From assembly GCA_043803945.1 (NCBI GenBank), contig JAZDJN010000044.1, forward strand, positions 1-37,285: a stretch of DNA of 37,285 bases, read 5' to 3'. Within the stretch, counting starts at the first letter, position 1. Each line of letters begins with the position of its first letter. The notes beneath the pieces were generated by a model. That model saw only the letters and a list, made by a program, of their open reading frames with translations. It had not been told where the DNA came from and searched no databases. The DNA is from a bacterium (lineage in GTDB: Bacteria; Bacteroidota; Ignavibacteria; UBA10030). A program made the translations under genes and the position numbers. Below are positions 1 to 33,976 of the stretch, piece after piece.

Positions 1-150
1 CCATTCTATTGCACAAACTAAATCTCAAACCCCCTTCCAGGCTTGAAATGAAACTCAAATTGTAGTGTAAACTTTTGACACCTTTTGCCTCTTATAGCTC
101 AGAATCATCGTTTTTTCTTCACAACTGTCGAACTTGGGCTAGAGGAAGTT

Positions 151-179
151 CTTGTTCATAAGCTGAGCTTATGAACAAG
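151..179. repeat. Perfect 29-bp palindrome (14-1-14); operator-like or tyrosine-recombinase (dif-like) site
   Basis: cttgttcataagct-g-agcttatgaacaag; the arms are exact reverse complements. Function is inferred. Confidence 0.7.
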
Positions 180-218
180 TATTATTTTGGCGGACTTGGC
201 GGTTCATTTTTTTTTGTC

Positions 219-250
219 AAAAAAAAGGCGCCCATCATCAGGCGCCTCTT
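219..250 (-). terminator. Rho-independent terminator for the minus-strand operon ending at 363
   Basis: Stem aggcgcc/ggcgcct with an 8-nt loop, followed on the minus strand by a T8 run. Confidence 0.7.
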
Positions 251-285
251 TGATAACTCTAAATCAACAGAGTATTAATAAAACT

Positions 286-362
286 GCCTCTGTGATCATC
301 AGTGATTTTTCTACGTTCTCTGTGTAATCTGTGTTATCAGTGTAATCAGTGTAATCAGTGGT
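286..362. repeat. Degenerate ~9-bp-period tandem repeat (aatcagtgt-like) abutting a stop codon
   Basis: tgtgtaatctgtgttatcagtgtaatcagtgtaatcagtggt ends just before the stop at 363. Confidence 0.7.
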
Positions 363-1055
363 CTACTTTTCAGCCTTTAGCCGGTCGAGCGATTCTTGGA
401 TGGCTTTCAGTTTCGCGGGCGGCAGTTGTTCAGCGCTTAAGAGAGAATATTCTTTAATCGCTTCATTTTTCAGTTTCATCTTTTCAAACGCAACGGCAAT
501 AAGTAACCGTGAGTCGTAGTCGAGTTTGAGTTCTGGAAATTTGCGCATCGTCTCTTTTGATTTTAAAATTGATGTGGCAAAAAATGCATTGTCAAAAAGG
601 ACTTTGGTGCCGTGAAGCTGCATCGTTCCTACATGGACATCCGATTTCTGTTCGGAATCGCTCTTCGATTTATCCGTTCCGTGGATAATTGTGGCATTCG
701 GCAGTGTCAGGTTCTGATCTTCCCGGGCCGGAACGGAAAGGATATTCTCCATTGCAAGCTTTAGAAGAAAATCTTCCTGATTCAACTGGCGAAGATCGGA
801 AAGATCAATGAGCGAGAGCTCCGGAACAGCGATCATTTTTTTCTGATCCACAATGAGTGAGGCGGAGGCATTTTTACCGGTACGCATGCTATCCTCCGGT
901 TTGAGGACATCGCCGACCTTTACCCGTTTCCATTCCTCAGTGACACCCCTGCGTACCTCGACAATACCCTTCACTGATTTTACCATGAAGGAATTTGCCA
1001 GTACGATGGTTGTGAAAATGCTTGCAAGCAGGATCACACCAATAATAGTTTTCAT
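363..1055 (-). CDS. Secreted FecR-like beta-domain protein with C-terminal TPR-like helices
   Basis: Signal peptide MKTIIGVILLASIFTTIVLA; VKGxVEV..W..vkvGDvL...D.MRTG..ASA.L pattern of FecR-domain proteins; helical C-terminus; purine-rich RBS before ATG 1055. Confidence 0.7.
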   Translation of the reverse strand: MKTIIGVILLASIFTTIVLANSFMVKSVKGIVEVRRGVTEEWKRVKVGDVLKPEDSMRTGKNASASLIVDQKKMIAVPELSLIDLSDLRQLNQEDFLLKLAMENILSVPAREDQNLTLPNATIIHGTDKSKSDSEQKSDVHVGTMQLHGTKVLFDNAFFATSILKSKETMRKFPELKLDYDSRLLIAVAFEKMKLKNEAIKEYSLLSAEQLPPAKLKAIQESLDRLKAEK

Positions 1056-1072
1056 GACTCTTCCTTTCCTCT

Positions 1073-3112
1073 TCAATTATTCGGAATGACATCAACAACT
1101 CTTACCCAGTTACGGACAATTCCATCGCCGATAACCACGGTATTCAAATACTCTTCTGCTCCTACTTCCCATGCTTTCTGAAAACCTTCGGTGATCGCTG
1201 TCGTCTCCAATGGAATCCAAACTGTTTCCTTGCCTTGCTCGTTTTTTCGGATCACATACCGTTTTGGATTTTCACTGACCCGGTCCGATTCGACAACCGG
1301 TATTCCCGTATCAAACAACAGGAAGATATGGGCATCCTGCGGTTTTCCGGGCGGGACAATATCGACAAATGCCGTGCTGATTCCGACACTGATCAGCAGT
1401 GATGAAAAGCAAACCGTCATATCGTCGCAATCGCCGCCGCGCAGGGCAATTGTCTCAGGTGGAAATTGCACCCGATCCTTGCTCAGCTTGGGGTCGTTCA
1501 CATAAGAGAGCCGGCTCGCAAATTCATCAAATAAGAGCGCCGCGGATGTAATCTTCTCCAGAGCCTTTGGTGTTGCTGCCAATGAATCCTTATACTTGCT
1601 TATGACACCTCGTGTGAACCGCAGCACATCGCGATCTTCCGGTGTGACAAAATTGCGCAGCGTATAGATGTTCCCATCCCATTCATTCCGTCCGCGAAAG
1701 ACCACATTCATCTGGAATCGATCATCGTATCCTTCGGCCGGAGCCGCTGAAACAAATACTTCGCCCGCCTTCAGGATCATACTCGAAATCGATGTCACAG
1801 CTTCATTAAAGACCGCTGTGAATGGGATCTCTGCTTCAGCTTTTGGTTCGATAAAGTATGGGCGCGTGACAGTCGGTTTATCCATAAACCGATCGACATA
1901 AAACGAGACTGTCGCTTCGATGGGAGTTCCGGAGATATTGCGTACAAGCGCTTTCCCAATCGGCCAGGAGGCATAATCCTGATAGGAAGAGGGGTAGACA
2001 TCGCTGATGCGGACATTCTCGATCTTCGCCAGAATATCCCGTGTTCGTCCAAGAGCAACATTCACCGATAAGGTAACCTGGTTGTGGGTGAATTGATTAT
2101 AGCCAAGATCCTTTACTCCCGTTGTGAGAAACTGCTGCACTGTGATACTGTCGCGGGCTTCCTGGTTGAAGAAGTACAGATAACTCAAATCGAACTTTGC
2201 GGAGCCATAACTCCATCCGATCCCTGCGCCAAAGCCGGGAAAGAATGGCTGCAGTTTTGCTCCATAGAGCAGGCTGCCGCGTAAGGCGATTGTCTCACTT
2301 GGCGTCCATTCCATGCCGAGTGCTCCCTGCTTCTCCGTATCGAAGTCGAAGGCAAGCGTCATGTCAGATTGATATTTGTATGCAAGGCCCATACGAAGCG
2401 ATTTGATATTTCGTAATCCATATTCGAGTAAATCCTGCGGCAATTCTGTTTCCGTAAAGCGGAAGAGATTTTTTGCCACTGCACCGACTGTGATCGCCGG
2501 TGAATAATTCCACAGGATTCCAAAGTCAAGGTTCCAGCCGCTTGCCGTGAAATCCTTCGTGAGAATCCGCGCCTGCTCGGTAAAGTACTCCGTATCGGTG
2601 ATGAGTTGCTCTCTGAACCGTGCGGAAATTCCGACACCGACCGAAGGAGCAATTTTATAACCATACCCGAGCGCATATTGCTCGCGGTAGGTGATCCGTT
2701 TTTCAGCAGTCACCCTCGGCCCATCCGGAAATTGCAGCGCACTCGGCACAACGAATTCCATTGAGAGACCGGGTGAATAGCTGCCTGCAATAACATGATG
2801 ATCGAGAAATCGTTTTGCACTGCCGGTCGTAAAAAGAGAAATCCCCTTCAAAGGGATATCCCTTCTCAGGGTAGCAAATGTCGACGCGGTCACTTCCCAG
2901 TCCCTCACAGAATTCAATCCTGCGGGGTTCCATTCGATGCTCGTTATATCATTTGCCAGCGCTGTAAACGCACCAAGCGCGGCACCTCGTGCAGAACTAA
3001 CCTGTTGTGCACTGACAGACGACCACACGAGTAGCATCATGAGTATTGACCGGCGAACAAAGAACAATGTTTGTTTGGTGGGGAACACGCAACAAATGCG
3101 CCGTAATACCAA
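1073..3112 (-). CDS. Outer-membrane PorV/FadL-like beta-barrel fused to a C-terminal transglutaminase-like (papain-fold) domain; start uncertain (3112 to 3040)
   Basis: N-terminal SARGAALGAFTALANDITSIEWNPAGL motif, amphipathic beta strands, then GDCDD, AHIF and IPLETT motifs (putative Cys-His-Glu triad). Confidence 0.7.
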   Translation of the reverse strand: MVLRRICCVFPTKQTLFFVRRSILMMLLVWSSVSAQQVSSARGAALGAFTALANDITSIEWNPAGLNSVRDWEVTASTFATLRRDIPLKGISLFTTGSAKRFLDHHVIAGSYSPGLSMEFVVPSALQFPDGPRVTAEKRITYREQYALGYGYKIAPSVGVGISARFREQLITDTEYFTEQARILTKDFTASGWNLDFGILWNYSPAITVGAVAKNLFRFTETELPQDLLEYGLRNIKSLRMGLAYKYQSDMTLAFDFDTEKQGALGMEWTPSETIALRGSLLYGAKLQPFFPGFGAGIGWSYGSAKFDLSYLYFFNQEARDSITVQQFLTTGVKDLGYNQFTHNQVTLSVNVALGRTRDILAKIENVRISDVYPSSYQDYASWPIGKALVRNISGTPIEATVSFYVDRFMDKPTVTRPYFIEPKAEAEIPFTAVFNEAVTSISSMILKAGEVFVSAAPAEGYDDRFQMNVVFRGRNEWDGNIYTLRNFVTPEDRDVLRFTRGVISKYKDSLAATPKALEKITSAALLFDEFASRLSYVNDPKLSKDRVQFPPETIALRGGDCDDMTVCFSSLLISVGISTAFVDIVPPGKPQDAHIFLLFDTGIPVVESDRVSENPKRYVIRKNEQGKETVWIPLETTAITEGFQKAWEVGAEEYLNTVVIGDGIVRNWVRVVDVIPNN

Positions 3113-3187
3113 AATATTGAACTATGTTTAGTTAATAAGGTTTTTTATCTTCTCTGAGAATTTCTCCTCAAAAAGGCTGACCAGCAA

Positions 3188-4123
3188 TTACTTTAACCAA
3201 AGAATAATGTTGTGAATTGAAGAGGCCTGAATGAGAACCTTTTCCTCCAGACCGCCATCGACAATCCTCTTCACTTTCCTATTCGACGAGATAAAAGACA
3301 GCATATACCGATTATTCGGGCTCTGTTCTAGTGCCTGCAATGCCTTTGATGGAATTGTTATTGAATTTGATCCACTCTGGACCTGAATCTTCATGACCGG
3401 TTTGACAACGAGGTGATTGGTCGGGCTGAAAATACTCATCACCACCTGAAATGATTCCCCGATAGCTCCACTCCAACGCACCGTCAAGTTCTCCTTCTTC
3501 ACGATGACCGAATTTGATTGCGGTTCAGTGACGGTAATATCGGAAGGTGCATCGATTTCCTCAGAGATGGTGACCGTTGAATAGCGGCCTTTTGCCAGAA
3601 AAGAATAGTGACCTTGTGGATTGTATATCTTTTTCTGAGCTCCAATCTTATCATGCCCAATGGAGTCGTATGTTCTGCCACTCGAGATTGGTAGAGGAAG
3701 AGAAAAATGCACTGTTCTATAGGGCCGGGTGACCGCGGGAAGATTGAATGTATCTTCACCGCGTCTCAATTGCGCAATATCCATCGGCATCCCGTTATAG
3801 TCTTTCACCTTCCCTTCATTGACGATGGGTCTGTTTCTCCAATTCATAAATATTCTGGAGAAGGAGAACGTTTCCCTTCCAGTTGATAAATCAGACTTCA
3901 CCCCATTCACCAATAACAATGCACCATACTCTTTCTCTTCGTTGTAGAGCACACCGGTTGTATCGATTGATGAATCCAATATTGCTAAAGAATCAATCTC
4001 AACAATTTGGGATGCCTGGAGGACTTGATCAGGATTGTCGAGTGTCAACTCCACCGGCATCTGTTCCTGACAGCCGACCAGCCACAGGGATGTAACGACA
4101 AGAATAATACTCCATTTACGCAT
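3188..4123 (-). CDS. Hypothetical lipoprotein
   Basis: MRKWSIILVVTSLWLVG-C lipobox; 311 aa; beta-rich C-terminal region. Confidence 0.75.
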   Translation of the reverse strand: MRKWSIILVVTSLWLVGCQEQMPVELTLDNPDQVLQASQIVEIDSLAILDSSIDTTGVLYNEEKEYGALLLVNGVKSDLSTGRETFSFSRIFMNWRNRPIVNEGKVKDYNGMPMDIAQLRRGEDTFNLPAVTRPYRTVHFSLPLPISSGRTYDSIGHDKIGAQKKIYNPQGHYSFLAKGRYSTVTISEEIDAPSDITVTEPQSNSVIVKKENLTVRWSGAIGESFQVVMSIFSPTNHLVVKPVMKIQVQSGSNSITIPSKALQALEQSPNNRYMLSFISSNRKVKRIVDGGLEEKVLIQASSIHNIILWLK

Positions 4124-4287
4124 AGGTTATCGCTCGCTACCAGTTGTAATATACGAAATTGTGGAGGATTCCAAAACGTTTGAAGTCAACTCAGGAGAGA
4201 AAACCAGGAGAGAATTGTCGATTAGCACACCTTGTTCGATTCTTGAAGTCATTGCGAGTACTTACCGCATTTTCAATGAGTTGAGAT

Positions 4288-4327
4288 AAAAAAACTGGCT
4301 CCCGCCGTTCCCCGGAACGGGAGCCAG
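4288..4327 (-). terminator. Rho-independent terminator after the 4344..5159 gene
   Basis: Stem ctggctcccg/cgggagccag followed by T7 on the minus strand. Confidence 0.8.
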
Positions 4328-4343
4328 ATGGGTACCGAAAGAT

Positions 4344-5159
4344 TTACTGCACTACATACGGTAGCCCCAAAAAACTCGTAGAAACAGGTGCATCAGAAAT
4401 ACATAATGTCTCACGCGTGATCGCATCGACAATTGCATGATAGACGCCAGGTTGAGGACGAGTCCAGACACGATCTTCATACGTGTGAAGGTAGTGTCTC
4501 CCCGTTCGATTTTCAGATCGGAATGGCAAAATTCCCCGGTAATTCCACGAACCAAATCCGGAGCGGAGGACCATCATATTCGGTTCCAAACTGCGGGAGT
4601 GAAGTTTCACCGTCACATTCACCATCGACTCTGCGTCGACCGTTGCGATGCGAGGATCATTCTGGCCGAAGGGCCATACCTGCTCTTCAACTCCCTTGAT
4701 GGAAATCTTTTCGCCCGACGAAAGCTCCAGCCTGATTTCATCGATCGACACGTTTTGATCTTCCGTACCTCCCTTGACCACCGAGACAGCGCTGAGTTTC
4801 CAATTCTTCGAAGGGTCTTTCGTTTCAGCAATTCGTCTGAAATGCGCTTTCCGCTTGCTAAATTCAGTGAATGGTTTGGAAAGATTCATCATTCGAACAC
4901 GTGCGCTGACTTGATATGGTGCGCTGCTCCTCAGAATTCCTTTGATGGTTCGCTGTATCGTTGCGATAACGTCGCGATCACCGGTTTCGTCGAACGTGAT
5001 ATTCTTCGAGGCGTTCTGGATTACCCTGCCCCACTTCAAGGGATATCCAAATTCAGAAACCATCTTTACTTCGCCGTCATTCAGAGGCTGAACGTCGCCA
5101 TTCAGCAGGCTGCTGTTTTCGATGAAGGTTTCCAAATATTTTTTGTCTCGAGGATTCAC
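4344..5159 (-). CDS. Hypothetical protein, probable sigma54-controlled monocistronic gene
   Basis: 271-aa ORF with GTG start, bounded by a -24/-12 promoter upstream and an intrinsic terminator downstream. Confidence 0.65.
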   Translation of the reverse strand: MNPRDKKYLETFIENSSLLNGDVQPLNDGEVKMVSEFGYPLKWGRVIQNASKNITFDETGDRDVIATIQRTIKGILRSSAPYQVSARVRMMNLSKPFTEFSKRKAHFRRIAETKDPSKNWKLSAVSVVKGGTEDQNVSIDEIRLELSSGEKISIKGVEEQVWPFGQNDPRIATVDAESMVNVTVKLHSRSLEPNMMVLRSGFGSWNYRGILPFRSENRTGRHYLHTYEDRVWTRPQPGVYHAIVDAITRETLCISDAPVSTSFLGLPYVVQ

Positions 5160-5196
5160 GTTGAACTTTCATTGAATAATTTCTTGAGAATACTTA

Positions 5197-5212
5197 TCCA
5201 ACTACTATGCCA
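5197..5212 (-). promoter_or_regulatory. Sigma54 (-24/-12) promoter
   Basis: Minus strand TGGCATAGTAGTTGGA versus consensus TGGCACG-N4-TTGCW: exact spacing, G in place of the -12 C; next to a bEBP gene. Confidence 0.65.
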
Positions 5213-5250
5213 GAAGGATTAAGGAAACCAACCCGGAAGCCTGGAAAGGA

Positions 5251-5263
5251 TAACACATTGATT
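5251..5263 (-). promoter_or_regulatory. IHF-like binding site
   Basis: Minus strand AATCAATGTGTTA matches WATCAANNNNTTR and lies between the promoter and the putative UAS. Confidence 0.5.
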
Positions 5264-5281
5264 ATTAAGGGATTACCATAT

Positions 5282-5368
5282 CCCGGCAGTATTGCTTAAG
5301 GAAATGCCGGAGAGCATGAAGTGCCGGAATTCTCACATAGAACTGCCGGAATCACTTTCTCCGGCAGT
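5282..5368. promoter_or_regulatory. Putative upstream activator sequences (TGCCGGA repeats)
   Basis: tgccgga at 5305, 5322 and 5344; inverted copies at 5282 and 5360; perfect inverted repeat actgccgga-N9-tccggcagt at 5342-5368. Confidence 0.55.
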
Positions 5369-5394
5369 CAAATCTTGCAGTTTTTACAACATCG

Positions 5395-5545
5395 ACCGCA
5401 GATTACACTGATTACGAAGATTATCACAGATTAGCGTAATCGGCTGTCCACAAATCAGTAAGTATCAATCGAAACAGTTTAATCAGTGTACCACAAATCA
5501 GTGAGTATCGGTCATCAGTGGTCATCTGTGGTCTTCAGTGGTCCA
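5395..5545. repeat. Inverted array of ~9-bp repeats (acactgatt / aatcagtgt) overlapping the 3' end of the bEBP gene
   Basis: Left arm cgcagattacactgattacgaagattatcacagatt; right arm aatcagtgt...gtcatcagtggtcatctgtggtcttcagtgg. Confidence 0.65.
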
Positions 5546-8161
5546 TTGGCGGGAGAGATAGGCCCTGAGGACTTCATCGAGAATGGTGTGATACCGCTGG
5601 GGTAGATTCTTATACTTCGATTTCAGCGTAAGTTTCAATTCCTCAAGGGGAAGGTCAATCGGGATTCCCTCTACGACGTTTGCCAGATACTCTGAGAGTT
5701 TCTTTCTCACACGGTCATTGGTCTCGGCATCTTCAGATTTGGAGATTGCCCGTACGGTACGTTCATGATCCCAGAGGTTTTCAAAGAAAAACTGGAAACA
5801 AAGTCCGCGGAAGTATTCGGCAACCGTTCCGCGGTGCATTCCTCCAAGCTCTTCCGCAGTTTCCGAAATTGAACTCCGGGAGAATTTTTTCACACGGAGG
5901 GATTCCAGAATTTGATCGGCAAGATCGACCTGGCCCTTGATCGCATTGGCGATCTGCTCCGGCAGGTCACGCAGTTGAAGTAGTGTCCGTTTCTCCGACC
6001 TGGCAAAAATAACTGCCCGTTTGATCGTGCTCTCCAGTTCCCGCACATTCCCCGGCCAGCGATATTGAAGAAACGAATCCATCACCGTTGTAGAAAGCGA
6101 CAGTCCTGCAGCTTCTCGCCGGACAAAGAATTCAGCAAGGAGGGAGATGTCGGTTTTTCGATCGCGTAATGGGGGGAGTTCGACGCTGAAGACATTGAGG
6201 CGATAATAGAGATCCTCCCGGAACCGTTTCGCGTCCATGAGTTCTTTTACATTTTTATTGGTCGCCGCGATAATCCGGGTGTTCACCTTTTTTGTAACGT
6301 TCGACCCCACCCGTTCGAACTCTCCATATTGCACCACACGCAGCAGCTTCACCTGAAAGGATTCGCTCGTCTCGGCAATCTCATCAAGAAAAATCGTTCC
6401 CCCGTCTGCCGACTCGAATCGTCCCATCTTGTCTTTTATGGCTCCGGTGAATGAGCCTTTCTCGTGGCCGAAGAGCTCGCTTTCAAGCAATGACTCTGTC
6501 AACGCACCGCAATTCACTGCAATGAAAGCTTTCTGTTTTCGAGTGCTCAGGTTGTGAATGGCGTGAGCGACCAGTTCCTTCCCAGTCCCGCTTTCTCCAA
6601 GAATCAGAACATTCGCATCGCTCGATGAAAGTTTCTGGACGAGTGAGACGATCTCCTTCATCTTGCCGGAAGTGTGATAGATGAGGCCTTCAAACTCCGC
6701 CTTTTCATTCTGCTGCTCTACTTCCACCGCATCGTACTTCACAAGGTCGCTCACCTGTGCAGAGAGCGTCTTAATGTCCTGCTTATAGCGGCGAATCTCA
6801 TCGAGCAGTTCGGTCCCGCGGCCCGATTGATCCGGAGAGGAATGATTGAGAAGTTCTTTTTCGAGCGTTTGCAGCTTCAACTCTCTTGCCCGCAATTCTG
6901 ATTCGATAGAATTCTTTTCATGTTCGAGCAGTGAGACACGGTCGCGGGCACCGATGAAGTAATACGTAAGACCGCCTATCATCACGAACAGAACGACGAA
7001 CATCGGTTGGACCATAGGAAGCACAAGCCACGACGTTGCGAAGGCAGTGTGCGACACTGCAAGGTAAATCAGGACAACAATAACACTCCCCAAAAGTGCG
7101 GTGATCGTTTTCCAGCGAAGGAGAAGAATGGTACAGAGGGATCCCAGAAGGAGTGTAATTATTGATTCCAGCCAGAGAGGAAATCTCTGCAGGAATGATC
7201 CTTGAAGTCCATTATGGACGAATGTCGCATGCAATCCCAGAGAGGGAAATTGTTCGGTGAAGGGGGTGATATAGAATGGAACACCTCTTCCCTTTGCAAT
7301 TACGCCGACCAGAACTATTTTCCCCTGCAGGATCGAGAGATCAATTGTTGGAGTTAAGCCGTACTTCTGCAGCTCATAGGAGCGCATCACTTCAACACAG
7401 CGCAATTTTCGGAAGGAATCCAGAGATCCGGGGATGTTCAACGTAACGGTTCCGGAGTTATCGGGTGAGAGCTTCTTCACACCCTCAGAGGTTCTGATTG
7501 AGAGTATACCATCATCAAGAAAGAGATCGGAGCGCTGAGCTCCAAAGTAGATCCGCAGAACCTCTAATGCAAACGATGGGACCGCACCATTCCCATAGCG
7601 AAGATAAAGAGGGATCCGGTCAGAGCGTTCTTCTGCGAGGTTCACATGACCGATTCCCGCCGCCCTATGGACCAGTGAGTCGAGCGGTTTGAAGAGTGGG
7701 TTTCCCCATCTGCCGCGATCGAGCCCTTTTAAATAGGCCAGGCTCTCCAGTCCATCGGTATTTTTTAATTCCGTATCAGATACTTTTGAAAAATAGCAGG
7801 TTAGAACAGTTTTGCCGGATCGTTCAATCGTCGTTTGGAGAAGGTGATCGTACTCTGGAAACTGGAGGTTCGGTTCTCCGAAGAATGTCTCAATCCCAAT
7901 AGCACGCACATTGTTCTTGGTTAAGACATCGAGCAGCAATGCATAGTACGATCGGGGGAGAGGCCAATTTTTAAGCTTGGCAATATCATCCTCATCGAAA
8001 TAGAGCAGCACGATATTCGAATCGGCCGGTGCCTGACCACGAAGTTCATACCGCAATCCGGTGATTTCGTTTTCCAGCTTTGAGAAGGGGGAAGAGAGAA
8101 CAAGCGAGAGCAGTACAATGCCGATCACGACAGCGAAAGCAACGAAATATTTATGATTCAT
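5522..8161 (-). CDS. Membrane CHASE2-sensor / sigma54-dependent enhancer-binding protein fusion
   Basis: N-terminal TM; CHASE2-like [36 protein letters not shown] motifs; 3 TMs; coiled coil; Walker [24 protein letters not shown], Walker [16 protein letters not shown]. Start set at ATG 8161 because the longer ORF runs through the tRNA. Confidence 0.9.
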
Positions 8162-8179
8162 AAATTCTAGAAAGGTTAC

Positions 8180-8256
8180 TGGTGACCCCACCGTGACTCG
8201 AACACGGAACCTACAGCTTAGAAGGCTGTTGCTCTGTCCACTTGAGCTATGGGGCC
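8180..8256 (-). tRNA. tRNA-Arg (anticodon UCU), 77 nt, CCA encoded
   Basis: ggccccatagctcaagtggacagagcaacagcct-TCT-aagctgtaggttccgtgttcgagtcacggtggggtcacca; cloverleaf with GTTCGA T-loop. Confidence 0.95.
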
Positions 8257-8367
8257 AAACACTGATCTTCAGATCCCGACATCGTTTCACTCGTCGGGAT
8301 GCTCAAAACAACTTCCACTCGTAAACAACACTCGTGGGTTGTTTTGGCACTTGAGCTATGGGGCCAA
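8257..8367 (-). repeat. Duplicated tRNA 5' end followed by two hairpins (pseudo-tRNA or REP-like insertion)
   Basis: 20-bp direct repeat cacttgagctatggggccaa at 8239-8258 and 8348-8367; hairpins at 8273-8300 and 8304-8346. Confidence 0.8.
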
Positions 8368-8670
8368 TGAAATTCTTCCGAAAACAACAAATCCGTGGTT
8401 CTAAATACCCGTCTGAAGTCTCGTTTTGCTTGTGGTCTTAAGGATTTCGTAGATTTAATTGTCAATATAAGCGAACAAAGAGAATTAATCAACGAAGGAA
8501 AGAGTGAAACAATTTCTCAGATTTACGTCTATTTATAACCGAAATCATTAGTACTATTTTACCTTTAGTATATAATCCTTTTAAACCTTGTATCAGATAT
8601 CCCTCTTTGCTAACGGATGAAGCGTGTAGTATTACAAAGGGGCCGAAAATAAGTTTAATAGAAAGTCTCA

Positions 8671-9657
8671 TTATGAATCTTTCCAAAGAAATGGCAAACT
8701 CTTCCTTGTTTCTTTTGAAGCAAATAGCTTATCGTCACCATCCCAAACTAGCCGAACATTCCTGTCCTTCTCAAGGAAGTGCCCCATCTATGTTAGATCT
8801 TGAGGAAGTTTAGTCTCAACTACTAGTACAAGCACAGCATCAGGTGTGTTTTGTAGATAACGATACTCATACAGTTGGCTAATGCCAGTGCGGACTTGCA
8901 AACGAACATTATCAATGGTTGTAGATTTCATTTCAAACAAGTAAGGAACATTCTCTACTCTAGCTGCAAGGTCTATGAGTTGATTACAACGTGGTAGGAT
9001 ACCCATCTTTCTTATTCGATTAGCTACCAGGTTTACTAGCTTCCTATGTTGGTTGCTCGCGCGTTCCATCGCGGCATCGTTTCTCATAATGGAAATATAA
9101 TTTTGAGCTTTACTTGCTCGCATTGCAACCTCTCTGTACTCCTTCAAAGAACCGCTTTTTGGAAAAAGTGGCTCTTCATTCACATCGTACTCTACAGGCT
9201 CGATCAAACTACCAAAGTCTTCTGTAATAAGATAGCGCGGACCTCGTTTTTCAATTAGGTTAAGAGAACCAAGCCAACTCACAACAGTGCTGACACGCCG
9301 ATCCATCATAGATTCACCAACTGGTTGTGTCACTTCAGAAATAAAGCCTTCAAGTATCTCTTTTGTTACACCTCGAGGATGTAACTCAAAAAATGGAACG
9401 ACTCGTCTGAAAAGTCTTGAGTTGATTACAATCTCTTTAAGCATCTTGTTCTGTACAGCAGGGACAGCTGCTAGAAATCTTCTACCGAGGTCCGTCATTT
9501 CAGCATGATTGCGTGAATTAGAAATCAATCCAAGTGTTTCAGCTGCCAATCGATAATATCGCCCTTGACGGTCGACCTCTTTGTAGAGCCACTTAAGTAA
9601 ATAGGGAAGTATGTTGCAGTGTGGTGAAACTAAGGAAGGGCTAATTCTTCTTTCCAA
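8671..9657 (-). pseudogene. Winged-helix plus PD-(D/E)XK (QxxxY-type) restriction-like nuclease with an in-frame TAG and a probable 5' truncation
   Basis: RQGRYYRLAAETLGLI; IDL...LFEMKS...GISQLYEY; TAG at 8788-8790 followed in frame by 38 more codons; no convincing start or RBS. Confidence 0.7.
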
Positions 9658-9884
9658 AACTCTTCAGTGACGTTCAGGAAACGAACACCAATCATGGGAT
9701 CTTCGGGAAATGTCTGACCGCAGCCGCATTCATATTCTAAGTAAACAACTATTCCTTCCCCCTCAAGGAATCTTTCATCTCCTGTTTCATCTACAATCGA
9801 AACAACGCGAACACGCTGCCCGATTCGGAACGGAGCACCAAAAACATCTTTGGTTATACCAATTGAAGTGTCTCCTGTAGACAT
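9630..9884 (-). CDS. CarS-like small acidic SH3-fold protein (putative DNA-mimic antirepressor)
   Basis: DVFGAPFRIGQRVRVV...RFL..EGIVV...FPEDPMIGV...FWKEEL resembles Myxococcus CarS as I recall it; 16 D/E versus 7 K/R in 84 aa. Confidence 0.6.
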   Translation of the reverse strand: MSTGDTSIGITKDVFGAPFRIGQRVRVVSIVDETGDERFLEGEGIVVYLEYECGCGQTFPEDPMIGVRFLNVTEEFWKEELALP

Positions 9885-9891
9885 GGGAAGG

Positions 9892-10605
9892 CTACGTCCA
9901 ACTTTGTTCCAAGGCTTTGCTTTCACTCGCCTTTGAGTGGAGGTCTGACACTAATTCATAGCTCGAGAACTTGATTCTGCTATATATGCTTTTGAAAACT
10001 GATTGACCGGTTTTTGAATCAAATTCTCTCTTGCGGACGGAGAGAGAAACTATTCTAAATACAGAAAAGAACGCCTTGAAGTTTGTAAACTTCAACAAGG
10101 AGTTATTGATGTCCGTGGTGTTCTCAACTTCGATGAATTCCGATGGCATCTTGTTGTCGTCAAACCAGATCACGTCAACGGTTCGTGCTCGACGAACAAT
10201 GTCTTCGTAAGTAAAGGGATAGATCTCATCTACCGTGGTCAGCTCTCCTAGACGTTTGCCAAGAAAAAACTTGTTTCTATCCTGAGCGGGAACAAATGTG
10301 GCTTGGTTTCGAAGATTGCCCAACTCCACAAGCAATCCTTGATAGTAAGTATGGTCGCTTTCCGGTTTCGGTTTTCCACGTAGATCAGACGGCAGTATGT
10401 CTTTTGCTTCATGGAGTGCCCAAAGTCCTGGTCGAATCCTAAAGAAGTATTCTGTATTTTGAACAATTCTGTTTATTGATTTGAACGGAGTTTTGGTTTC
10501 CCACTTGACATCGGCGATCTTCAAAACTTCCTTGTACAGGTAACCCAATGTGGCATAGCCACCATTAGCCCTCATCACATCGATCACAACTTCACGTTGG
10601 TTCAT
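9892..10605 (-). CDS. N-terminal winged-HTH (HARE-HTH-like) plus PD-(D/E)XK restriction-endonuclease-like protein
   Basis: GGYATLGYLY...KTPFKSI...PGLWAL; HTYYQGLL...VDVIWF...IEVENTT; ATGA overlap with the upstream ORF. Confidence 0.7.
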   Translation of the reverse strand: MNQREVVIDVMRANGGYATLGYLYKEVLKIADVKWETKTPFKSINRIVQNTEYFFRIRPGLWALHEAKDILPSDLRGKPKPESDHTYYQGLLVELGNLRNQATFVPAQDRNKFFLGKRLGELTTVDEIYPFTYEDIVRRARTVDVIWFDDNKMPSEFIEVENTTDINNSLLKFTNFKAFFSVFRIVSLSVRKREFDSKTGQSVFKSIYSRIKFSSYELVSDLHSKASESKALEQSWT

Positions 10606-11042
10606 ATTTGAAAACCTTTGGCAGAAAGAAATACTACTTGATTGTTTGGCTTGAGAGCCCGAACCTCGTAATAGAACTTCTCATCATTCACATATCGTCC
10701 AAGTTCACGAATCAACGCATCGACATTATCGCGGACTGCTTTGTAAGCATTTATCAACTCTTCGTTGGAATCACTCAAAACAGCCTCGGGTGGCCGCAAA
10801 TGGAAAAAAAGCGCACCCGCGCCAACAAATGGTTCAATGTATCGGCGATACGTTCCCGGGATATGGCCCATCAACTCAGGCAGAAGTTGTTTCTTTCCCC
10901 CCGCCCACTTCAAGAAGAGGCCACCTTTCACAAGGATTTGCTTAGATGCTTCCACGGGTGAATAGCTCAAAGGAATTTGAGGTTTTACTACATCAGGTGT
11001 AGTCTCAATTTTATTGGAATACTTGTAGTGTGATCTCATCAT
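10602..11042 (-). pseudogene. dam: Truncated Dam-family (D12 class) DNA adenine methyltransferase
   Basis: FLKWAGGK, YIEPFVGAGALFF, SDSNEELINAY present; ends at 146 aa with no DPPY catalytic motif. Confidence 0.8.
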
Positions 11043-11198
11043 GATTCAAATACGGTTACAATAATATAATTGAAATCACCTGATCAAACAAGTCAGTTAA
11101 TATGCAAGCAACGGGAAGCTCCGACCCTCTACCACTTGAGTTCATTTCTGTGTACAATAGAATTGTCCATGCCCTCTCAACCTATGGGAGATGCTGCC

Positions 11199-14061: not shown

Positions 14062-14508
14062 ATGCATAAACGACTCTATCTCTCGAAAAAAGACAAAGTA
14101 ATTGCAGGTGTTGCCGGTGGTTTGGGTGAATACCTCGACGTCGATCCCGTGTTTATCCGGATCATTTTCGTCGTTGCACTCTTCGCCGGCGGTTTTGGCT
14201 TGCTTGCCTATATCGTTGCCTGGATTATTTTACCCGAGCGGCCAAATGGTGTCAATGCAGCTTCTGCTCCGCAGAGCGAGCCGCAGCCCGGTCAATCAAT
14301 CCCTGCCAGCCCGCCTCCGCCTCCCCCCCAACCCGCACAACAAGGCCGCGGAGGACTTATCTTCGGAAGCATACTTGTCGTTCTAGGTTTGCTTTTCCTT
14401 GCAGAGAATTTCATTGAGAACTTTCACTTTGGCGATTGGTGGCCGCTTATTCTCGTAGCAATGGGTGCAGGTCTCTTGTACAAAGCTTTTCGACCTTCAC
14501 AATCATAA
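14062..14508 (+). CDS. pspC: PspC-domain protein with C-terminal LiaF/DUF5668-like TM segment
   Basis: KRLY.S..DKVIAGVAGGLGEYLDVDP..IRI...AYIVAWIILP; Pro-rich linker; WWPLILV. Confidence 0.85.
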   Translation: MHKRLYLSKKDKVIAGVAGGLGEYLDVDPVFIRIIFVVALFAGGFGLLAYIVAWIILPERPNGVNAASAPQSEPQPGQSIPASPPPPPPQPAQQGRGGLIFGSILVVLGLLFLAENFIENFHFGDWWPLILVAMGAGLLYKAFRPSQS

Positions 14509-14518
14509 TGAGGTGACT

Positions 14519-15421
14519 ATGAAACTCAGCACACTGTTTTGGGGAGTACTTTTTGTTGCGATTGGAGTGCTCTTCTTACTCGATAATCTCGATATTCTCT
14601 ATTTCGACTGGGCCGTTATCCTTAAGCTCTGGCCTTTACTGCTTGTGCTCTGGGGAGCGATGCTTATTATTGGGAAGGAAAAGCCGAAGTGGTATGTGGT
14701 TGTCCTGGTAATTTTCTTTGCTCTCTTCGCTCTTGCGGGTACGGTATTGTATGAGATCACAAATTTCAGAGAGGACTTCGCCTCTCACGATGCTACCACA
14801 CAGACCTTCACTTCACAATTTGGCTCTGATATTGACCATGGCAAATTTTCACTGCGCTCCGGAGCCGGGAAATTCATTCTTGAAGATACCACCGATCAGA
14901 TGATCAACGCCGTCACGGAGACAAGCTTTGGGGAATACCGATTCGATGAGGAACGAGATGGCCGGTCTGTGAATCTTGACCTTTCCCTGGAAGGGAGAGA
15001 GCGTGGATGGGTATTCCGAAAATGGTCTAACCGAGTGAATGTAAAACTGAATCCTTCGCCGGTCTGGGCTTTTGATCTTGAGGTCGGAGCCTCCAGCATC
15101 AATTTCGACCTGCGGCCGTTTGAGGTTGAAGATATAAAAATCGATTGCGGTGCCTCGTCCCTCAACCTGCAGTTAGGCGATCGAGCGAAACAAACCAATG
15201 TCCAAATCCATGGCGGTGCTTCTTCTCTCGATATCACCGTCCCACGCTCCGTTGGTTGTGAGGTGCGGGCGAACACAGCACTCACCAGCAAACGGCTGCA
15301 GGATTTTGAGAAAATCCATGGGAATCTCTTTCAGACAGAAAACTTCGAGGATGCCAAGAAGAAAATCTATATAGAAATAGAAACTGGTGTTTCGAAAATT
15401 CGAATCCGGAGAGAAGGGTAA
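14519..15421 (+). CDS. LiaF-like membrane protein (DUF5668 TMs plus beta-solenoid domain)
   Basis: LFWGVLFVAIGVLFLL...LWPLLLV; repeated GAS/GAG beta motifs; GAGGTG RBS before ATG 14519. Confidence 0.75.
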   Translation: MKLSTLFWGVLFVAIGVLFLLDNLDILYFDWAVILKLWPLLLVLWGAMLIIGKEKPKWYVVVLVIFFALFALAGTVLYEITNFREDFASHDATTQTFTSQFGSDIDHGKFSLRSGAGKFILEDTTDQMINAVTETSFGEYRFDEERDGRSVNLDLSLEGRERGWVFRKWSNRVNVKLNPSPVWAFDLEVGASSINFDLRPFEVEDIKIDCGASSLNLQLGDRAKQTNVQIHGGASSLDITVPRSVGCEVRANTALTSKRLQDFEKIHGNLFQTENFEDAKKKIYIEIETGVSKIRIRREG

Positions 15422-16871: not shown

Positions 16872-19800
16872 GTGCAAGTACATATGACCGAGACCAGATG
16901 TGATCAACCTTGGGTGGGCGTACGACTGTTCTCCACCCTCCTGCTGTTTCAACTCATCGTTCCAACTTTTCTTTCAGCACAACTTGATAAACTTAACGAC
17001 TCCTGGCGATGGAGTCACTTTACTACACAAACGAGGCTGCCTTCAAACCGGATCATTGCAATCGAAGAGACAGAAGACAGTACGATTTGGGCGGCTACAA
17101 CAAGGGGAATAGCATGGTATGATGATTATCTGTGGCAGCATATCGGAATAGATCAGGGCTTACCCGATTCTATTCCAAAATTTCTTGTGAAGGTCGGGAG
17201 AGATAAAATCGGTGTTCTTTACGACAACGGTGTGTACATCGGAAACAAAAAAGGATTTTCCCCTTACACAGACTCCACCACGATGATGGATAGTATTAAT
17301 ACCTTTTCCAGCTTTGATGAAAACGATTATCTCGTTATGCGGGATATTAATCTCTATCGAGTAACCAATCGAGTCTTCAAGAAAATCAATACACCTGCTC
17401 AGTGCGTTCGCCACGTCCACTCGGTAGCAATTATTCCACATACCAATCAATTTTTACTGAATACTGTAAAAGGTATCTACCGTTTTGATGGAGAGCAATG
17501 GCATCTTCAGATACCAGTCACGATTTGGGATATTGCATCGTTCCATTTTCGAACAACAGCAAGAGGCGATGGCATCATTGCCGCTATCAATACGATGGGG
17601 TATGAGAGCTTATGGGAAATAAAAAATTGGAACACGCTATCAAAAATCCAGACTGGAATTACTGCTCAGGCCCGGTCGTTAGACATTTCTTCTACAGGAA
17701 ACATCATCGTTGCATACGAGACTGGAGTTGTGCGCATTAGGCAAGAGGGGCTTTGGCAACAAGTATCCGCACTTCCACCCGAATTAATGGCGATTCGCAG
17801 TCTCAAATTTGCTCATAACGACGACCTCTGGGTTGGTACAGAAGATGGATTGTTTCTCTTCCATGCTTCTTCCTCACGCTGGAAGAATTTCAGTTTACCG
17901 GCTCCTAACAGAAAAAATCATGTACATGAAGTATTTAAAGCATCGGATGGAGCAGCATGGCTGGGGACACGTGATGGACTCATCGTACGTGATCAACAGG
18001 GAAATCAACGGTTCATCAACTCCATTAATGGCATAGCACTTAATACTGTTACCGCTATCAATCAGGATCGTCAGGGCAATATCTGGGTAGGCAGCGGCGC
18101 CACTTTTACAGGAACGTATAAGTGGGATGGAAGGACTTGGACGCACCACACGATTCAGGATACGCCGACAAATGTGTATGTCCATAAAATTAGAAAAGGT
18201 CGTGATGGGAGTCTCTGGTTTCTCTGCCTTGGTGCTGAGTATAATGATTCCATACAGCCCGGTGCATATCATTACCAAAATGAACAATTTATTCATTGGG
18301 GAATGGACAAAGATCGTTCTTTGGGAAGAGTGTACAGCTTCGCAGAAGATAGTTCAGGCGGCCTTTGGTTCGGCAGCAATAGTGGAATAACCCGCTTGCG
18401 CGATGGAACATGGAAAAATTGGAACGATGCCGCTGGGTTAAAGGTAACTCGTACCTATGCTATAGTCGCTGATGATTCGGGTCGAATATGGTTTTCCGAT
18501 GAGAAATCCGGCCTCGGCTACATAGACAAAAAGGATCAGCCGCAATATTACGATGAATCCGATGGCTTATTAAGCAAGGAAGTGCGGGATATTCAAGTGG
18601 ACGCATCTGGTCGATTATGGCTCTCGACGAAATTAGGATTAAGTCTTTATGATCATGGTACCTGGTCATCGTTCGGCACAAAATCCGGCCTCGGCACATT
18701 ATGCCTTTGGGAAAACCTTCCATTGAAAGATAGCGTACTGGTTGGGAGTGATGGCGGCGGGCTCAACATTCTCAACCTGGCCGAAGCATCAAAGGCCCCT
18801 CGCATCGAGCGTAATGGGCAGCCAACCATTCATAACAATCTGGCGTTGATCCGGTGGGAGGTCTATTCATACCGCGGTGAACAGGATCAGAATGATATCG
18901 AAATACGATATCATCTCGATGACTCAATCTGGTCCGACTGGACAACACTGCGGGAATGGAAGGGGGACACTCTTAGTGCCGGTGACCATGTTTTTCATCT
19001 TGAAGCAAAGAGCCTGTTTGGAAAAATTACTCCTGAGGAATGCCTGATCCTGTTTTCGATCGAGCCGCCGTTTTACCTCCGAATGCAATTTTTGTTTCCC
19101 GTTGCAACGCTGTCAGGAATGTTGGCGTTTTTCGTTGTTGCTTACAACCGCCGGAGACGATCCCATGGCAGGGAATTACGAACCAGCGACGAGCGATTCC
19201 AGCTCGTCTCACGTGCAACGAATGATACAATCTATGATGCTGACCTTCTGTTAAAGAAGGTTTGGTTTAATATCGGGCTGCAAACGACCTATGGGTATAC
19301 TGAAGCGTTGCAGAAGCTCGATCTTTCCTGGTGGAGAAGTCGGATTCACCCCGATGATCTGAAAAAAACACAAGAAGCGCTTGAGACGACAATACATGAG
19401 CATGGGGCATTCATCCAGCAAGAGTACCGTTTCATGCGTGCCGACGGCCAATATGCTTTTGTCCTCGATCGTAGCTATATCATCTACCATGGGGGAATAG
19501 CGGCCCGTTGGATTGGCTCAATTATGGATATTTCCGACAGGAAAAAAGCCGAAGAGACATTGGAAAAGGAACGTCTATTACTCAGAACTCTCGTTGAAGC
19601 GCTGCCGGATGAATTTGCATTAAAAGATGTCGAAGGTAAGTTTCTTATTGTTAATAAAGAAACTGTCCGTGCGCTCAACAAGGAACGCCCTGAAGAGGTT
19701 CTCGGGAAAACAGATCAGGATTTCGTACGTTCTCCTCTTGCTGAGAGCCAGGCAGAGGATGAGAATACTATTCTTGAAACTGGGCGGCCGATGATAAACC

Positions 19801-21164: not shown

Positions 21165-21846
21165 TACCGCAACAGAACAACAAACACGCATTGTCCTTGT
21201 CGATGATCATATCCTTGTCCGTGCAGGAATCCGGTCTCTCCTCGAGCAATTGCCCAATATCATCGTGGTCGGTGAAGCGAATGACGGCCGGGAGGCAATT
21301 CGTATTATCCGGGAAAACAATCCCGATATTGTTTTAATGGATATTGCTATGACCGGCTTGAACGGCCTCCAGGCATTGGAGTATATCAACCAGCAATTTC
21401 CCTCAGTGCAGGTCCTTATTCTCTCCATGCATGCGAATGAAGAGTATGTGCTGAAAGCCCTACGATACGGTGCCTCCGGCTACCTTCTCAAAGAATCAGC
21501 GGTGAATGAATTAGAACTTGCACTGACAGCCATCAAGAGAGGGAATAAGTATCTCAGTCCTCCAATTTCACGCCAGGTCATCGATCAGTACACAAAAAGA
21601 CTTGTTGATGTGGAAGAGTCCCCCCAGCCTCCCGTCAATCCGCTCGATCAACTTACTCTTCGTCAGCGCGAAGTACTCCAATTAATCGCAGAAGGTAAAT
21701 CCACCAAGGAAATTGCCACTGCGTTGAATCTCGGAGTGAAGACCGTTGAGACTCACCGTACAGAATTGATGAGGAAGCTCAACATTCATGACGTGACAGG
21801 ATTAGTGCGTTTTGCCATTCAGGTCGGCCTTATTTCGGCTGGATGA
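21157..21846 (+). CDS. NarL/LuxR family response regulator
   Basis: LVDDH, LMDIAM, ILSMH, LTLRQREVLQLIAEGKSTKEIA...KTVETHR; GTG start with AGAGG RBS. Confidence 0.93.
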   Translation: MNNTATEQQTRIVLVDDHILVRAGIRSLLEQLPNIIVVGEANDGREAIRIIRENNPDIVLMDIAMTGLNGLQALEYINQQFPSVQVLILSMHANEEYVLKALRYGASGYLLKESAVNELELALTAIKRGNKYLSPPISRQVIDQYTKRLVDVEESPQPPVNPLDQLTLRQREVLQLIAEGKSTKEIATALNLGVKTVETHRTELMRKLNIHDVTGLVRFAIQVGLISAG

Positions 21847-33619: not shown

Positions 33620-33976
33620 ATGCCCGGGGACATAAAAGAACGAACCTTAGATTTTGCAATCCGAATTGTTCGGTTGGCAGATAAAATGCCAAATTCTCAA
33701 GCTTCAATGATCATCACAAAACAATTGATTCGTTCGGGAACCTCAATCGGAGCCAACGTCGAGGAGGCAAATGCCGCACCAACGAGAAAAGACTTTGCGT
33801 ATCGATTGAATGTGGCTTTGTGTGAAGCGAGAGAAACCAAATATTGGCTCTCAATTATAAGGGCAGTTGGATACACAGCATCAGTGGAAGTAAACTCACT
33901 CTTCCAAGAATGCGAAGAGCTCTGTAAGATTTTAGGCGCAATTGTCAGTACTGCTCGTGGTAAACGAATACATTGA
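33620..33976 (+). CDS. Four-helix-bundle protein (23S rRNA IVS-like / TIGR02436 type)
   Basis: RTLDFA, KQLIRSGTSIGANVEEA, DF...A..EARETKYWL; strong AGGAGG RBS. Confidence 0.92.
   Translation: MPGDIKERTLDFAIRIVRLADKMPNSQASMIITKQLIRSGTSIGANVEEANAAPTRKDFAYRLNVALCEARETKYWLSIIRAVGYTASVEVNSLFQECEELCKILGAIVSTARGKRIH

Follow-up and report, generated by a model that had tools for sequence, protein, structure and literature searches.

The 37,285-nt stretch of Ignavibacteria DNA analysed here (contig JAZDJN010000044.1, hereafter the window) carries five co-oriented genes on its minus strand, within positions 363–8161, all of them present where an earlier note on the bare sequence had placed them. In the direction of transcription they encode a CHASE2 sensor fused to a sigma-54 activator, i.e., a bacterial enhancer-binding protein (bEBP); a 271-aa protein preceded by an enhancer and a -24/-12 promoter; a lipoprotein; an outer-membrane barrel with a transglutaminase-like domain; and a secreted FecR-like protein. 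As judged from the sequence, it is highly probable that CHASE2 activates sigma-54 transcription directly, without a phosphorelay, because the sensor and the activator form one polypeptide whose own enhancer and promoter lie directly downstream, in a conserved arrangement. We consider it somewhat probable that the cluster as a whole is a lineage-specific envelope-sensing circuit built around this one-component, membrane-integral activator. For comparison, one genome per species was scanned, which revealed 459 loci encoding a barrel relative; the best 80 of these 459 were fetched and examined. Synteny was assessed by tblastn with the window proteins, counting only loci with enough flanking sequence and using thresholds of our own choosing.

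The CHASE2–bEBP protein

The CHASE2–bEBP gene (5522–8161, minus strand) encodes an 879-aa protein laid out as a first transmembrane segment (TM1), a periplasmic CHASE2 domain, three further transmembrane segments, a coiled-coil linker, a sigma-54 AAA+ domain with its lid, and a C-terminal helix-turn-helix (HTH)-like domain. The fusion reported by the earlier note is confirmed, since both domains score far above their Pfam cut-offs within one polypeptide: CHASE2 (PF05226) reaches 122.6 bits (cut-off 26.3; E 2.7e-35) and Sigma54_activat (PF00158) 233.1 bits (cut-off 20.2; E 1.8e-69), and AAA_lid_14 is matched as well (E 1.8e-17). The CHASE2 cut-off is also passed by the bEBPs of three other loci (L005, L046 and L062). 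Hydropathy places the hydrophobic segments at residues 6–24, 329–347, 352–370 and 387–405, giving one N-terminal helix, an extracytoplasmic stretch of about 300 residues and three helices ahead of the output domain. In the CHASE2 family, the topology is likewise an N-terminal helix, an extracytoplasmic domain and three helices before the output domain. The periplasmic sensor domain itself (7178–8089; residues 25–328, between TM1 and TM2) was delimited by Pfam and hydropathy; the Pfam match spans residues 59–386 of a longer, 922-aa open reading frame (ORF) that is discussed below.

Between the membrane helices and the AAA+ core lies a charged, coiled-coil-like linker. The sigma-54 interaction core (6182–6676) contains Walker A (GESGTGKE, position 522), the GSFTGA loop (569) and Walker B (IFLDE, 590), and all 26 aligned orthologues share the G, F, T, G and A of this loop. 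Searched against the PDB, the family profile retrieved 38 sequences, all of them bEBP AAA+ domains, with NifA as the best match (E 4.7e-113). A conserved HTH-like motif is visible in the C-terminal region of the same 26-sequence alignment, and the NCBIfam RtcR alignment reaches residue 869 of the 922-aa ORF; together with the enhancer itself, these features suggest that the bEBP binds DNA.

The start of the gene is fixed by a tRNA-Arg(TCT) directly upstream (8180–8256, minus strand; Rfam tRNA 65.6 bits, ARAGORN), which ends 18 nt before the bEBP start codon. The longer ORF, extending to 8290 (922 aa), is therefore regarded as an artefact, and 48 orthologues are 851–905 aa long. The tRNA precedes the bEBP gene in 4 of the 43 loci scanned. 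The only other Rfam match in positions 1–9000, a miRNA-like one with E 0.45, was rejected as chance.

Pfam and NCBIfam scans found no kinase, receiver, extracytoplasmic function (ECF) sigma factor or anti-sigma factor encoded in the cluster. A search with the CHASE2 region listed 120 matches, 27 of which carry Sigma54_activat; all the named ones among these 27 are metagenome-assembled genomes (MAGs) of Ignavibacteriales or Bacteroidota, so the fusion looks lineage-restricted. The remaining matches listed have cyclase, Ser/Thr kinase, histidine kinase, GGDEF/EAL, phosphatase or TIR outputs. Annotation pipelines already name the CHASE2–Sigma54_activat fusion automatically. In the literature searched, with subscription journals outside its scope, no description of CHASE2 together with sigma-54, or with a transmembrane enhancer-binding protein, was found; as judged from titles and abstract openings, nothing relevant on membrane-anchored bEBPs was found either. 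The accessible part of a general survey of sigma-54 regulons includes no Ignavibacteria (PMC12316311).

The control region and its first gene

Our strongest result concerns the spacer between the bEBP gene and the gene for the 271-aa protein, where the predicted enhancer and promoter have the textbook layout of an enhancer-dependent promoter. The putative sigma-54 promoter, TGGCAT-N5-TTGG (TGGCATAGTAGTTGG; 5198–5212, minus strand), lies 39 nt upstream of the GTG start codon of the 271-aa gene and has two mismatches to the consensus. The earlier note had proposed a -24/-12 element here, a claim that stays at chance level in the window alone, where the consensus with up to two mismatches gives 30 matches against 28.3 expected, and that becomes convincing by comparison. 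In the other genomes, the best consensus match in this spacer is nearly always TGGCA[C/T]-N5-TTG, and the pattern TGGCAY-N5-TTG occurs in the spacer of 54 of the 56 loci. Counted over all sequences, it has 55 sites in 29,740 nt of spacer versus 7 (5 on the plus and 2 on the minus strand) in the remaining ~1.97 Mb, and exactly one site in the 37-kb window. The base following TGGCAY is a purine in 54/55 promoter sites.

The candidate enhancer, or upstream activating sequence (UAS), occupies 5305–5368 (minus strand) and consists of three direct TCCGGCA cores (at 5350, 5328 and 5311) within ATTCCGGCAsTTC, accompanied by an inverted core copy at 5366–5360. Across loci, the motif appears as tandem ATTCC[C/G]GCAcTTC about 100–140 bp upstream of the promoter, with at least one core in 53 of 55 promoter regions and two or more in 46. 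Successive cores are most often 21–22 bp apart (42 of 59 spacings), and the last core is separated from the -24 element by a median of 103 nt. All 48 tandem pairs detected in 1.23 Mb (both strands) lie upstream of the 271-aa gene, and the single pair in the window is the one at 5350. Promoter and enhancer are retained even in L049, L063 and L072, where the bEBP gene is not adjacent.

A site between the enhancer and the promoter (AATCAATGTGTTA; 5251–5263, minus strand) resembles WATCAAN4TTR, which we take to be the consensus of integration host factor (IHF); this assignment is weak, exact copies being present in only 9 of 55 regions, and we do not rely on it. Region 5400–5545 includes a window-specific stretch of ~120 nt between the bEBP stop codon and the enhancer, with three 10-bp-spaced copies of GGTCATCAGTGGTC overlapping the end of the bEBP gene and a 30-nt direct repeat (5437–5466 and 5480–5509).

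The first gene under the promoter (4344–5159, minus strand) encodes the 271-aa protein, for which Pfam and NCBIfam gave no family and profile searches no PDB relative; the BamM match of its family (E 0.072) covers the signal-peptide region only and was unusable. The ESM Atlas model of the protein (predicted template-modelling score, pTM, 0.81) matches only unnamed Ignavibacteriota/Bacteroidota clusters above a template-modelling (TM) score of 0.5, and its named neighbours are beta-sandwich families at TM scores of about 0.4. The orthologue of most clades is a lipoprotein and starts with the corresponding signal. The window's clade differs: there, the first Met marks the beginning of the conserved body, preceded within a few codons by stop codons; members of this clade (L001–L019 and L051) are 48–61% identical to one another despite the loss of the signal peptide. 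A plus-strand ORF opposite the gene (4437–5222) was rejected because the minus-strand frame has conserved orthologues. Three loci place an extra lipoprotein gene of ~265 aa between the promoter and the orthologue (L023:850–1653, L040:7197–7982 and L070:8009–8806).

Directly after the 271-aa gene, an intrinsic-terminator-like hairpin with a T-run is found at 4287–4327 (minus strand). The earlier note had given a terminator at 4288–4327, which was corroborated here: the hairpin (4327–4295) has a predicted energy of -24.1 kcal/mol and is followed by the T-run, and the feature is conserved. A hairpin of -15 kcal/mol or lower with a T-run within 35 nt of the stop codon occurs in 26 of 50 orthologous gaps versus 0–2 of 50 in five shuffles, and the hairpin sequences differ among clades. 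The gap following the gene is also long, with a median of 126 nt compared with 21 nt between the lipoprotein and barrel genes and 15 nt between the barrel and FecR-like genes (64 loci). Because of the conserved terminator and the long gap, the sigma-54 unit may be largely monocistronic, and the last three genes may lie outside the sigma-54 transcript.

These observations bear on the explanation that survives best beside our own, namely that the four downstream genes are the activator's regulon, an inducible envelope-remodelling or stress module, while CHASE2 senses something unrelated. All four genes follow the enhancer and promoter and share one strand; the lipoprotein, barrel and FecR-like genes are tightly packed in many clades, as the median gaps of 21 and 15 nt indicate; and the extra lipoprotein gene of L023, L040 and L070 stands behind the same promoter. 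A precedent exists in Sinorhizobium meliloti, where the available text of PMC5498481 describes a FecR-domain protein and a TPR protein as targets of the CHASE2–cAMP–Clr pathway. Since the three envelope genes are located downstream of the regulated gene, they may indeed be outputs. However, the strong terminator-like hairpin after the first gene in 26/50 gaps speaks against a shared transcript, and the general adjacency of CHASE2 and FecR genes (7/8 plasmid loci, see below) suggests a sensing partnership rather than a chance target. We therefore regard a purely downstream role of the four genes as unlikely, while giving it more weight than the explanations considered further on.

Envelope genes and their neighbourhood

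The order of the five genes is conserved. The FecR-like gene is directly downstream of the barrel gene in 77/77 loci, the 271-aa gene is present in 63/66, the lipoprotein gene, the most diverged of the set, in 56/70, and the CHASE2–bEBP gene in 47/51, with identical strand and order of the tblastn matches throughout. The barrel identity drops to 38% across these loci, and the gene order has therefore outlasted a long divergence. Chance adjacency of the five genes is rejected by these counts. Conservation of the neighbourhood was a check suggested in the earlier note, which held that a failure of the homologues to co-occur elsewhere, together with an absence of credible predicted interfaces, would speak against its proposal; the five genes do co-occur across related genomes.

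The last gene (363–1076, minus strand) encodes a secreted protein of 230–237 aa with a signal peptide, a FecR-like beta region (approximately residues 24–89) and a helical, TPR-like C-terminal half. Pfam FecR (PF04773) gave no match for the window protein. Among 37 distant representatives of the family, three reach E 0.015–0.019 (~16 bits) for Pfam FecR, below the cut-off, and 22 show sub-threshold TPR matches near residues 185–215. A second profile search, started from distant members, stayed within the family, with no FecR label among the 120 matches listed; searching representative proteins with the profile found 581, of which the 150 listed all belong to the same family; and the best PDB match has E 0.45. 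In the ESM Atlas, FecR and TPR are the only named neighbours (feature score 0.86; TM scores 0.41–0.45), which serves as a lead only.

A direct profile–profile comparison was more informative. With hhalign, the window family aligned to five true FecR proteins at 79% (E 1.6e-5) over 65 columns, covering residues 24–89 only; these references are CHASE2-adjacent proteins from annotated plasmids, all five of which match Pfam FecR (best 7.4e-14). The control families gave 0.13% (271-aa protein) and 0.13% (lipoprotein) against the same five proteins, and the barrel family gave 0.4% against the FecR-like family. Of the single-sequence comparisons with FecR, one reached 46% and another gave nothing. 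As a visual impression, LPNATIIHGT of the window recalls TPSATMAVRGT, a motif in the FecR set. The label chosen by the earlier note finds partial support: the match to true FecR proteins is confined to the N-terminal 65 residues and spans only half of the domain, and the Pfam cut-off is not reached; the region is probably a diverged FecR-type module. The protein as a whole is soluble; its signal peptide is cleavable, and it lacks a membrane anchor. It is certainly no FecR-type anti-sigma factor, because it comprises 230 aa with only a signal peptide and because no ECF sigma factor or TonB receptor match was found in the cluster or the window.

A link between CHASE2 and FecR is seen well beyond this lineage. 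Plasmid CHASE2 loci were collected by tblastn with the CHASE2 domain (39 records), and in seven of the eight annotated regions read, a gene for a 'FecR domain-containing protein' lies directly upstream of the CHASE2 gene; one of the seven, from Paraburkholderia, has the order FecR, OmpA-family gene, CHASE2. The available text on the Burkholderia 'BiofilmReg' operon likewise describes a response regulator, a LysM/FecR protein, a CHASE2 kinase and a DUF4136 protein (PMC5192318). These cases bear out the statement of the earlier note that CHASE2 genes often lie beside FecR genes. Its remark that no characterised example of such a relay was known needs qualifying, since in S. meliloti the outer-membrane barrel NsrA acts upstream of CHASE2 cyclases, according to the accessible part of PMC13001267.

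The barrel protein (1073–3112, minus strand; probable GTG start at 3088) combines a PorV/FadL-like barrel (approximately residues 1–320 of the 655-aa form), a middle domain and a C-terminal transglutaminase-like domain with Cys, His and Glu. The earlier note had described a barrel with a Cys-His-Glu domain; the profile evidence and the invariant residues agree with this description, and the curated cut-offs for Transglut_core and PorV are not reached. The similarity of the family profile to the PorV chain 6h3i_F in the PDB (E 1.1e-9) is real but distant. All Pfam and NCBIfam matches stay below the curated cut-offs, including PorV_fam (57.2 bits, cut-off 90; 2e-15), PorQ (18.4, cut-off 220), PorV (17.7, cut-off 250) and Transglut_core, for which the window protein scores 15.6 bits and that of L005 21.2 (cut-off 23). 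No variation is seen at G536, D537, C538, D539, D540, H571, D577 and E612 in the 16 sequences compared, one of them at 30% identity, and E612 may be the third catalytic residue, as read from the order of the motifs. In the PDB, the C-terminal part is best matched by 4u65_E (E 0.004), labelled 'putative cystine protease', and 4fgo_A (E 0.038), labelled 'periplasmic protein'; both are presumably LapG, a name that these labels do not give. The protein collection contains 86 relatives of the barrel, and all the named ones are Ignavibacteriales or 'Bacteroidota' MAGs; several homologues carry a precomputed PorP_SprF assignment.

The earlier note had drawn these proteins into one relay from the outer membrane through the periplasm to the inner membrane. 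Its final step, direct sigma-54 signalling without a phosphorelay or an ECF/anti-sigma pair, is well supported, but the passage through the three envelope genes is not, as they lie downstream of the regulated gene and behind the terminator. In such a relay, the barrel would be an outer-membrane receptor that signals to the FecR-like protein and on to CHASE2, by analogy with FecA–FecR–FecI or with NsrA and the CHASE2 cyclases. The constant adjacency of the barrel and FecR-like genes (median gap 15 nt, 64 loci; co-occurrence 77/77), the Paraburkholderia plasmid order and the position of the S. meliloti barrel upstream of CHASE2 cyclases (available text of PMC13001267) are consistent with this idea. 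Yet the barrel resembles those of the PorV/FadL type, with no match to a TonB-dependent receptor or a signalling domain in Pfam, NCBIfam or the PDB, and the additional domain conserved in it looks like an enzyme, with its Cys-His-Glu module, rather than like any signalling domain known. We consider the complete relay improbable.

Very unlikely is a Lap-like switch, in which the transglutaminase-like domain would be a LapG-type cysteine protease that cuts the FecR-like or another envelope protein, the resulting state being read by CHASE2. It is suggested by the best non-barrel PDB matches of the domain, which centre on the invariant GDCDD (4u65_E, 0.004; 4fgo_A, 0.038), and by weak matches of the FecR-like protein to the NCBIfam LapA retention module (E 0.0027; 17.9 bits versus a cut-off of 50) and to 5ix9 (E 0.87), but all of these are weak or below cut-off. 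Moreover, the 34-sequence alignment of the FecR-like family contains no conserved di-alanine site, the window having NATI where some orthologues have NAAV, and no LapD-like protein is found among the cluster genes. Least probable of all is a type IX secretion accessory, i.e., a PorV/PorQ paralogue with its own sortase-like cysteine enzyme, cargo or partner neighbours and an incidental regulator: despite the PorV_fam (2e-15), weak PorQ/PorV equivalog, 6h3i_F (1.1e-9) and PorP_SprF matches and the type IX sorting domains in genes neighbouring L049, the scores are far below the cut-offs (57 versus 90 bits; 18 versus 220–250), no cluster protein matches Por_Secre_tail, and the link to the regulator is conserved rather than incidental.

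The remaining envelope gene (3188–4123, minus strand) encodes a 311-aa lipoprotein with the lipobox LVGC, whose Cys is nearly invariant in 28 orthologues. Only weak Ig-like Pfam matches were obtained, and the profile search against the PDB gave no relative (best E 1.2).

Upstream of the cluster, the bEBP gene abuts same-strand genes for a TPR protein, a DUF4292 protein and an M23 peptidase in 33 of the 42 loci with room upstream. In these loci (among L021–L080, e.g., L046:1367–5097), the bEBP gene is the fourth gene of the row, often with overlapping start codons. The DUF4292 protein matches NCBIfam LolB1_Flavo (E 2.9e-6, below cut-off), and a TPR/LolB1-like/M23 trio next to the bEBP fits an envelope role. 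The nine loci without the trio are the window's clade. Four loci have no adjacent bEBP gene (L026, L049, L063 and L072) and carry unrelated genes upstream.

In the window itself, a 20-nt copy of the 5' end of the tRNA-Arg is found at 8347–8366, about 100 nt further up. Region 8300–11050 contains a restriction-modification-like remnant, in which genes for a DUF7226 protein and an SH3_18 protein accompany that of a truncated Dam methylase (146 aa, matching only positions 4–103 of 267). The remnant has the appearance of an island inserted next to the tRNA-Arg; in L005, the flanking genes are contiguous. On the plus strand, a PspC-domain protein and a LiaF-like protein, a pair of the envelope-stress type, are encoded at 14062–15421, syntenic with the cluster neighbours in L005. 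Further plus-strand genes encode a 1430-aa sensor kinase (Reg_prop repeats, PAS, GAF, HisKA_3) followed by a LuxR-type response regulator (16872–21846), and, flanked by two ABC exporter genes, a member of the 23S rRNA intervening-sequence protein family (33620–33976).

The proposed circuit and related systems

In the circuit that we propose, a periplasmic cue at CHASE2 would act through the helices and the linker to permit assembly of the AAA+ ring, and the C-terminal domain of the bEBP would bind the ATTCC[C/G]GCAcTTC repeats. The ring would then open the sigma-54 closed complex at 5212–5198, with no kinase, second messenger or anti-sigma factor involved. Since no more than a few hundred bases separate the enhancer from the bEBP stop codon, the membrane-inserted protein may be kept near its site, by analogy with ToxR and CadC. 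The promoter would drive one gene, encoding a small beta-rich envelope (lipo)protein, ahead of the terminator. Among the other products, the FecR-like protein would be the one most likely to pair with CHASE2 in the periplasm, as other CHASE2–FecR pairs suggest, and we tentatively put it forward as a co-sensor, a role that we hold to be possible rather than probable. The barrel and the lipoproteins would be partner or output components; as a conjecture, the enzyme-like, periplasm-facing domain of the barrel might act on the FecR-like partner or on the wall. In its most complete form, the LapG-like protease of the barrel would process or hold the FecR-like protein, CHASE2 would read the resulting state, and the membrane-embedded activator would fire the sigma-54 promoter, a scenario that we find improbable.

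Several points weigh against the circuit as proposed. No HTH_8 or other DNA-binding or HTH model of Pfam matches the C-terminal 142 aa of the bEBP at E values up to 10. The promoter pattern TGGCAY-N5-TTG was relaxed post hoc, after the matches had been seen, though its enrichment is very large, and in the -12 element TTG is followed by G, A or T in 49/55 sites and by the canonical C in six. The Pfam FecR cut-off (24 bits) is reached by 0/34 members of the FecR-like family, with one of the 34 at E 0.27, and none of the best 120 matches of the family-profile search carries PF04773. The gene for this protein is also four genes away from that of the sensor, whereas proteobacteria have it immediately upstream. 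In the window's clade, the 271-aa protein is without an export signal, which sits badly with a purely envelope role. Finally, the loci compared all come from one broad lineage of Ignavibacteria-like MAGs and represent a top-scoring subset, so that their counts are not independent.

The closest described relatives of the proposed circuit are the CHASE2–FecR systems of Burkholderia, the plasmid-borne cyclases and kinases, and CyaD1/CyaD2/CyaK with NsrA of S. meliloti. They share with the window the sensor domain and its topology, a secreted FecR-type partner gene in the cluster, and associated envelope proteins (a DUF4136 lipoprotein, an OmpA-family protein or the NsrA barrel). Their outputs, in contrast, are a histidine kinase, a cyclase, a Ser/Thr kinase or GGDEF/EAL domains, whereas that of the window protein is a sigma-54 AAA+ domain; their FecR gene lies directly upstream, whereas the window's diverged FecR-like protein, with its TPR-like tail, is encoded four genes downstream.

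Classical bEBPs (NtrC, NifA, PspF, FleQ, ZraR) resemble the window protein in the Walker motifs, the GAFTGA-type loop and the tandem UAS ~100–140 bp from the -24/-12 element. Their inputs are soluble receiver, GAF, PAS or V4R domains, whereas the input of the window bEBP is a polytopic membrane sensor, and its presumed C-terminal DNA-binding region, unlike theirs, is not recognised by Pfam HTH_8. Sensing and activation in one membrane protein, without a phosphorelay, is shared with activators of the ToxR/CadC type. For CadC, the accessible text of PMC5430869 describes one membrane protein that both senses in the periplasm and activates the promoter. ToxR and CadC, however, are bitopic, have an N-terminal winged helix and recruit sigma-70 polymerase, whereas the window bEBP has four helices, a C-terminal ring-forming AAA+ ATPase and sigma-54 as its target.

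Two further systems are more distantly comparable. FecA–FecR–FecI has in common with the window a periplasmic FecR-type beta domain and the general concept of a path across the envelope that ends at an alternative sigma factor; unlike it, the window has no TonB-dependent transducer, ECF sigma factor or anti-sigma domain, and its FecR-like protein is soluble. LapD–LapG–LapA likewise includes a periplasmic domain of the transglutaminase-like type with Cys, His and an acidic residue, and the sequences surrounding the catalytic Cys are weakly similar; in the window, by contrast, this domain is fused to an outer-membrane barrel, and no LapD-type c-di-GMP receptor or giant adhesin is present among the cluster genes. 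What appears new relative to the described systems is the direct CHASE2–bEBP fusion, whose bEBP and CHASE2 memberships are each borne out by the domain scores, together with the lineage-specific envelope module attached to it.

Sigma-54 activators are usually seen as soluble ring ATPases fed by kinases, small ligands or partner proteins; here, the activator itself would be a four-helix membrane receptor, one that hundreds of genomes retain, with enhancer and promoter only a few hundred bases from its gene. This raises the mechanistic question of how a membrane-tethered AAA+ ring assembles on DNA and reaches the polymerase. Comprising one protein, a control region of 200 bp and a single target gene, the system is compact, and as a one-protein transmembrane switch on a tightly off sigma-54 promoter it has engineering potential. 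If the full protease–FecR–CHASE2 circuit were true, it would represent a new link between cell surface and sigma-54, and its activator would be the first bEBP shown to function with a membrane anchor. Sigma-54 has been linked to cell envelope function, according to the available text of PMC4551910, and the cluster adds a case to the view that this factor governs the cell exterior. It may also help to establish what CHASE2 domains sense, as a candidate FecR-like partner and a read-out are encoded together.

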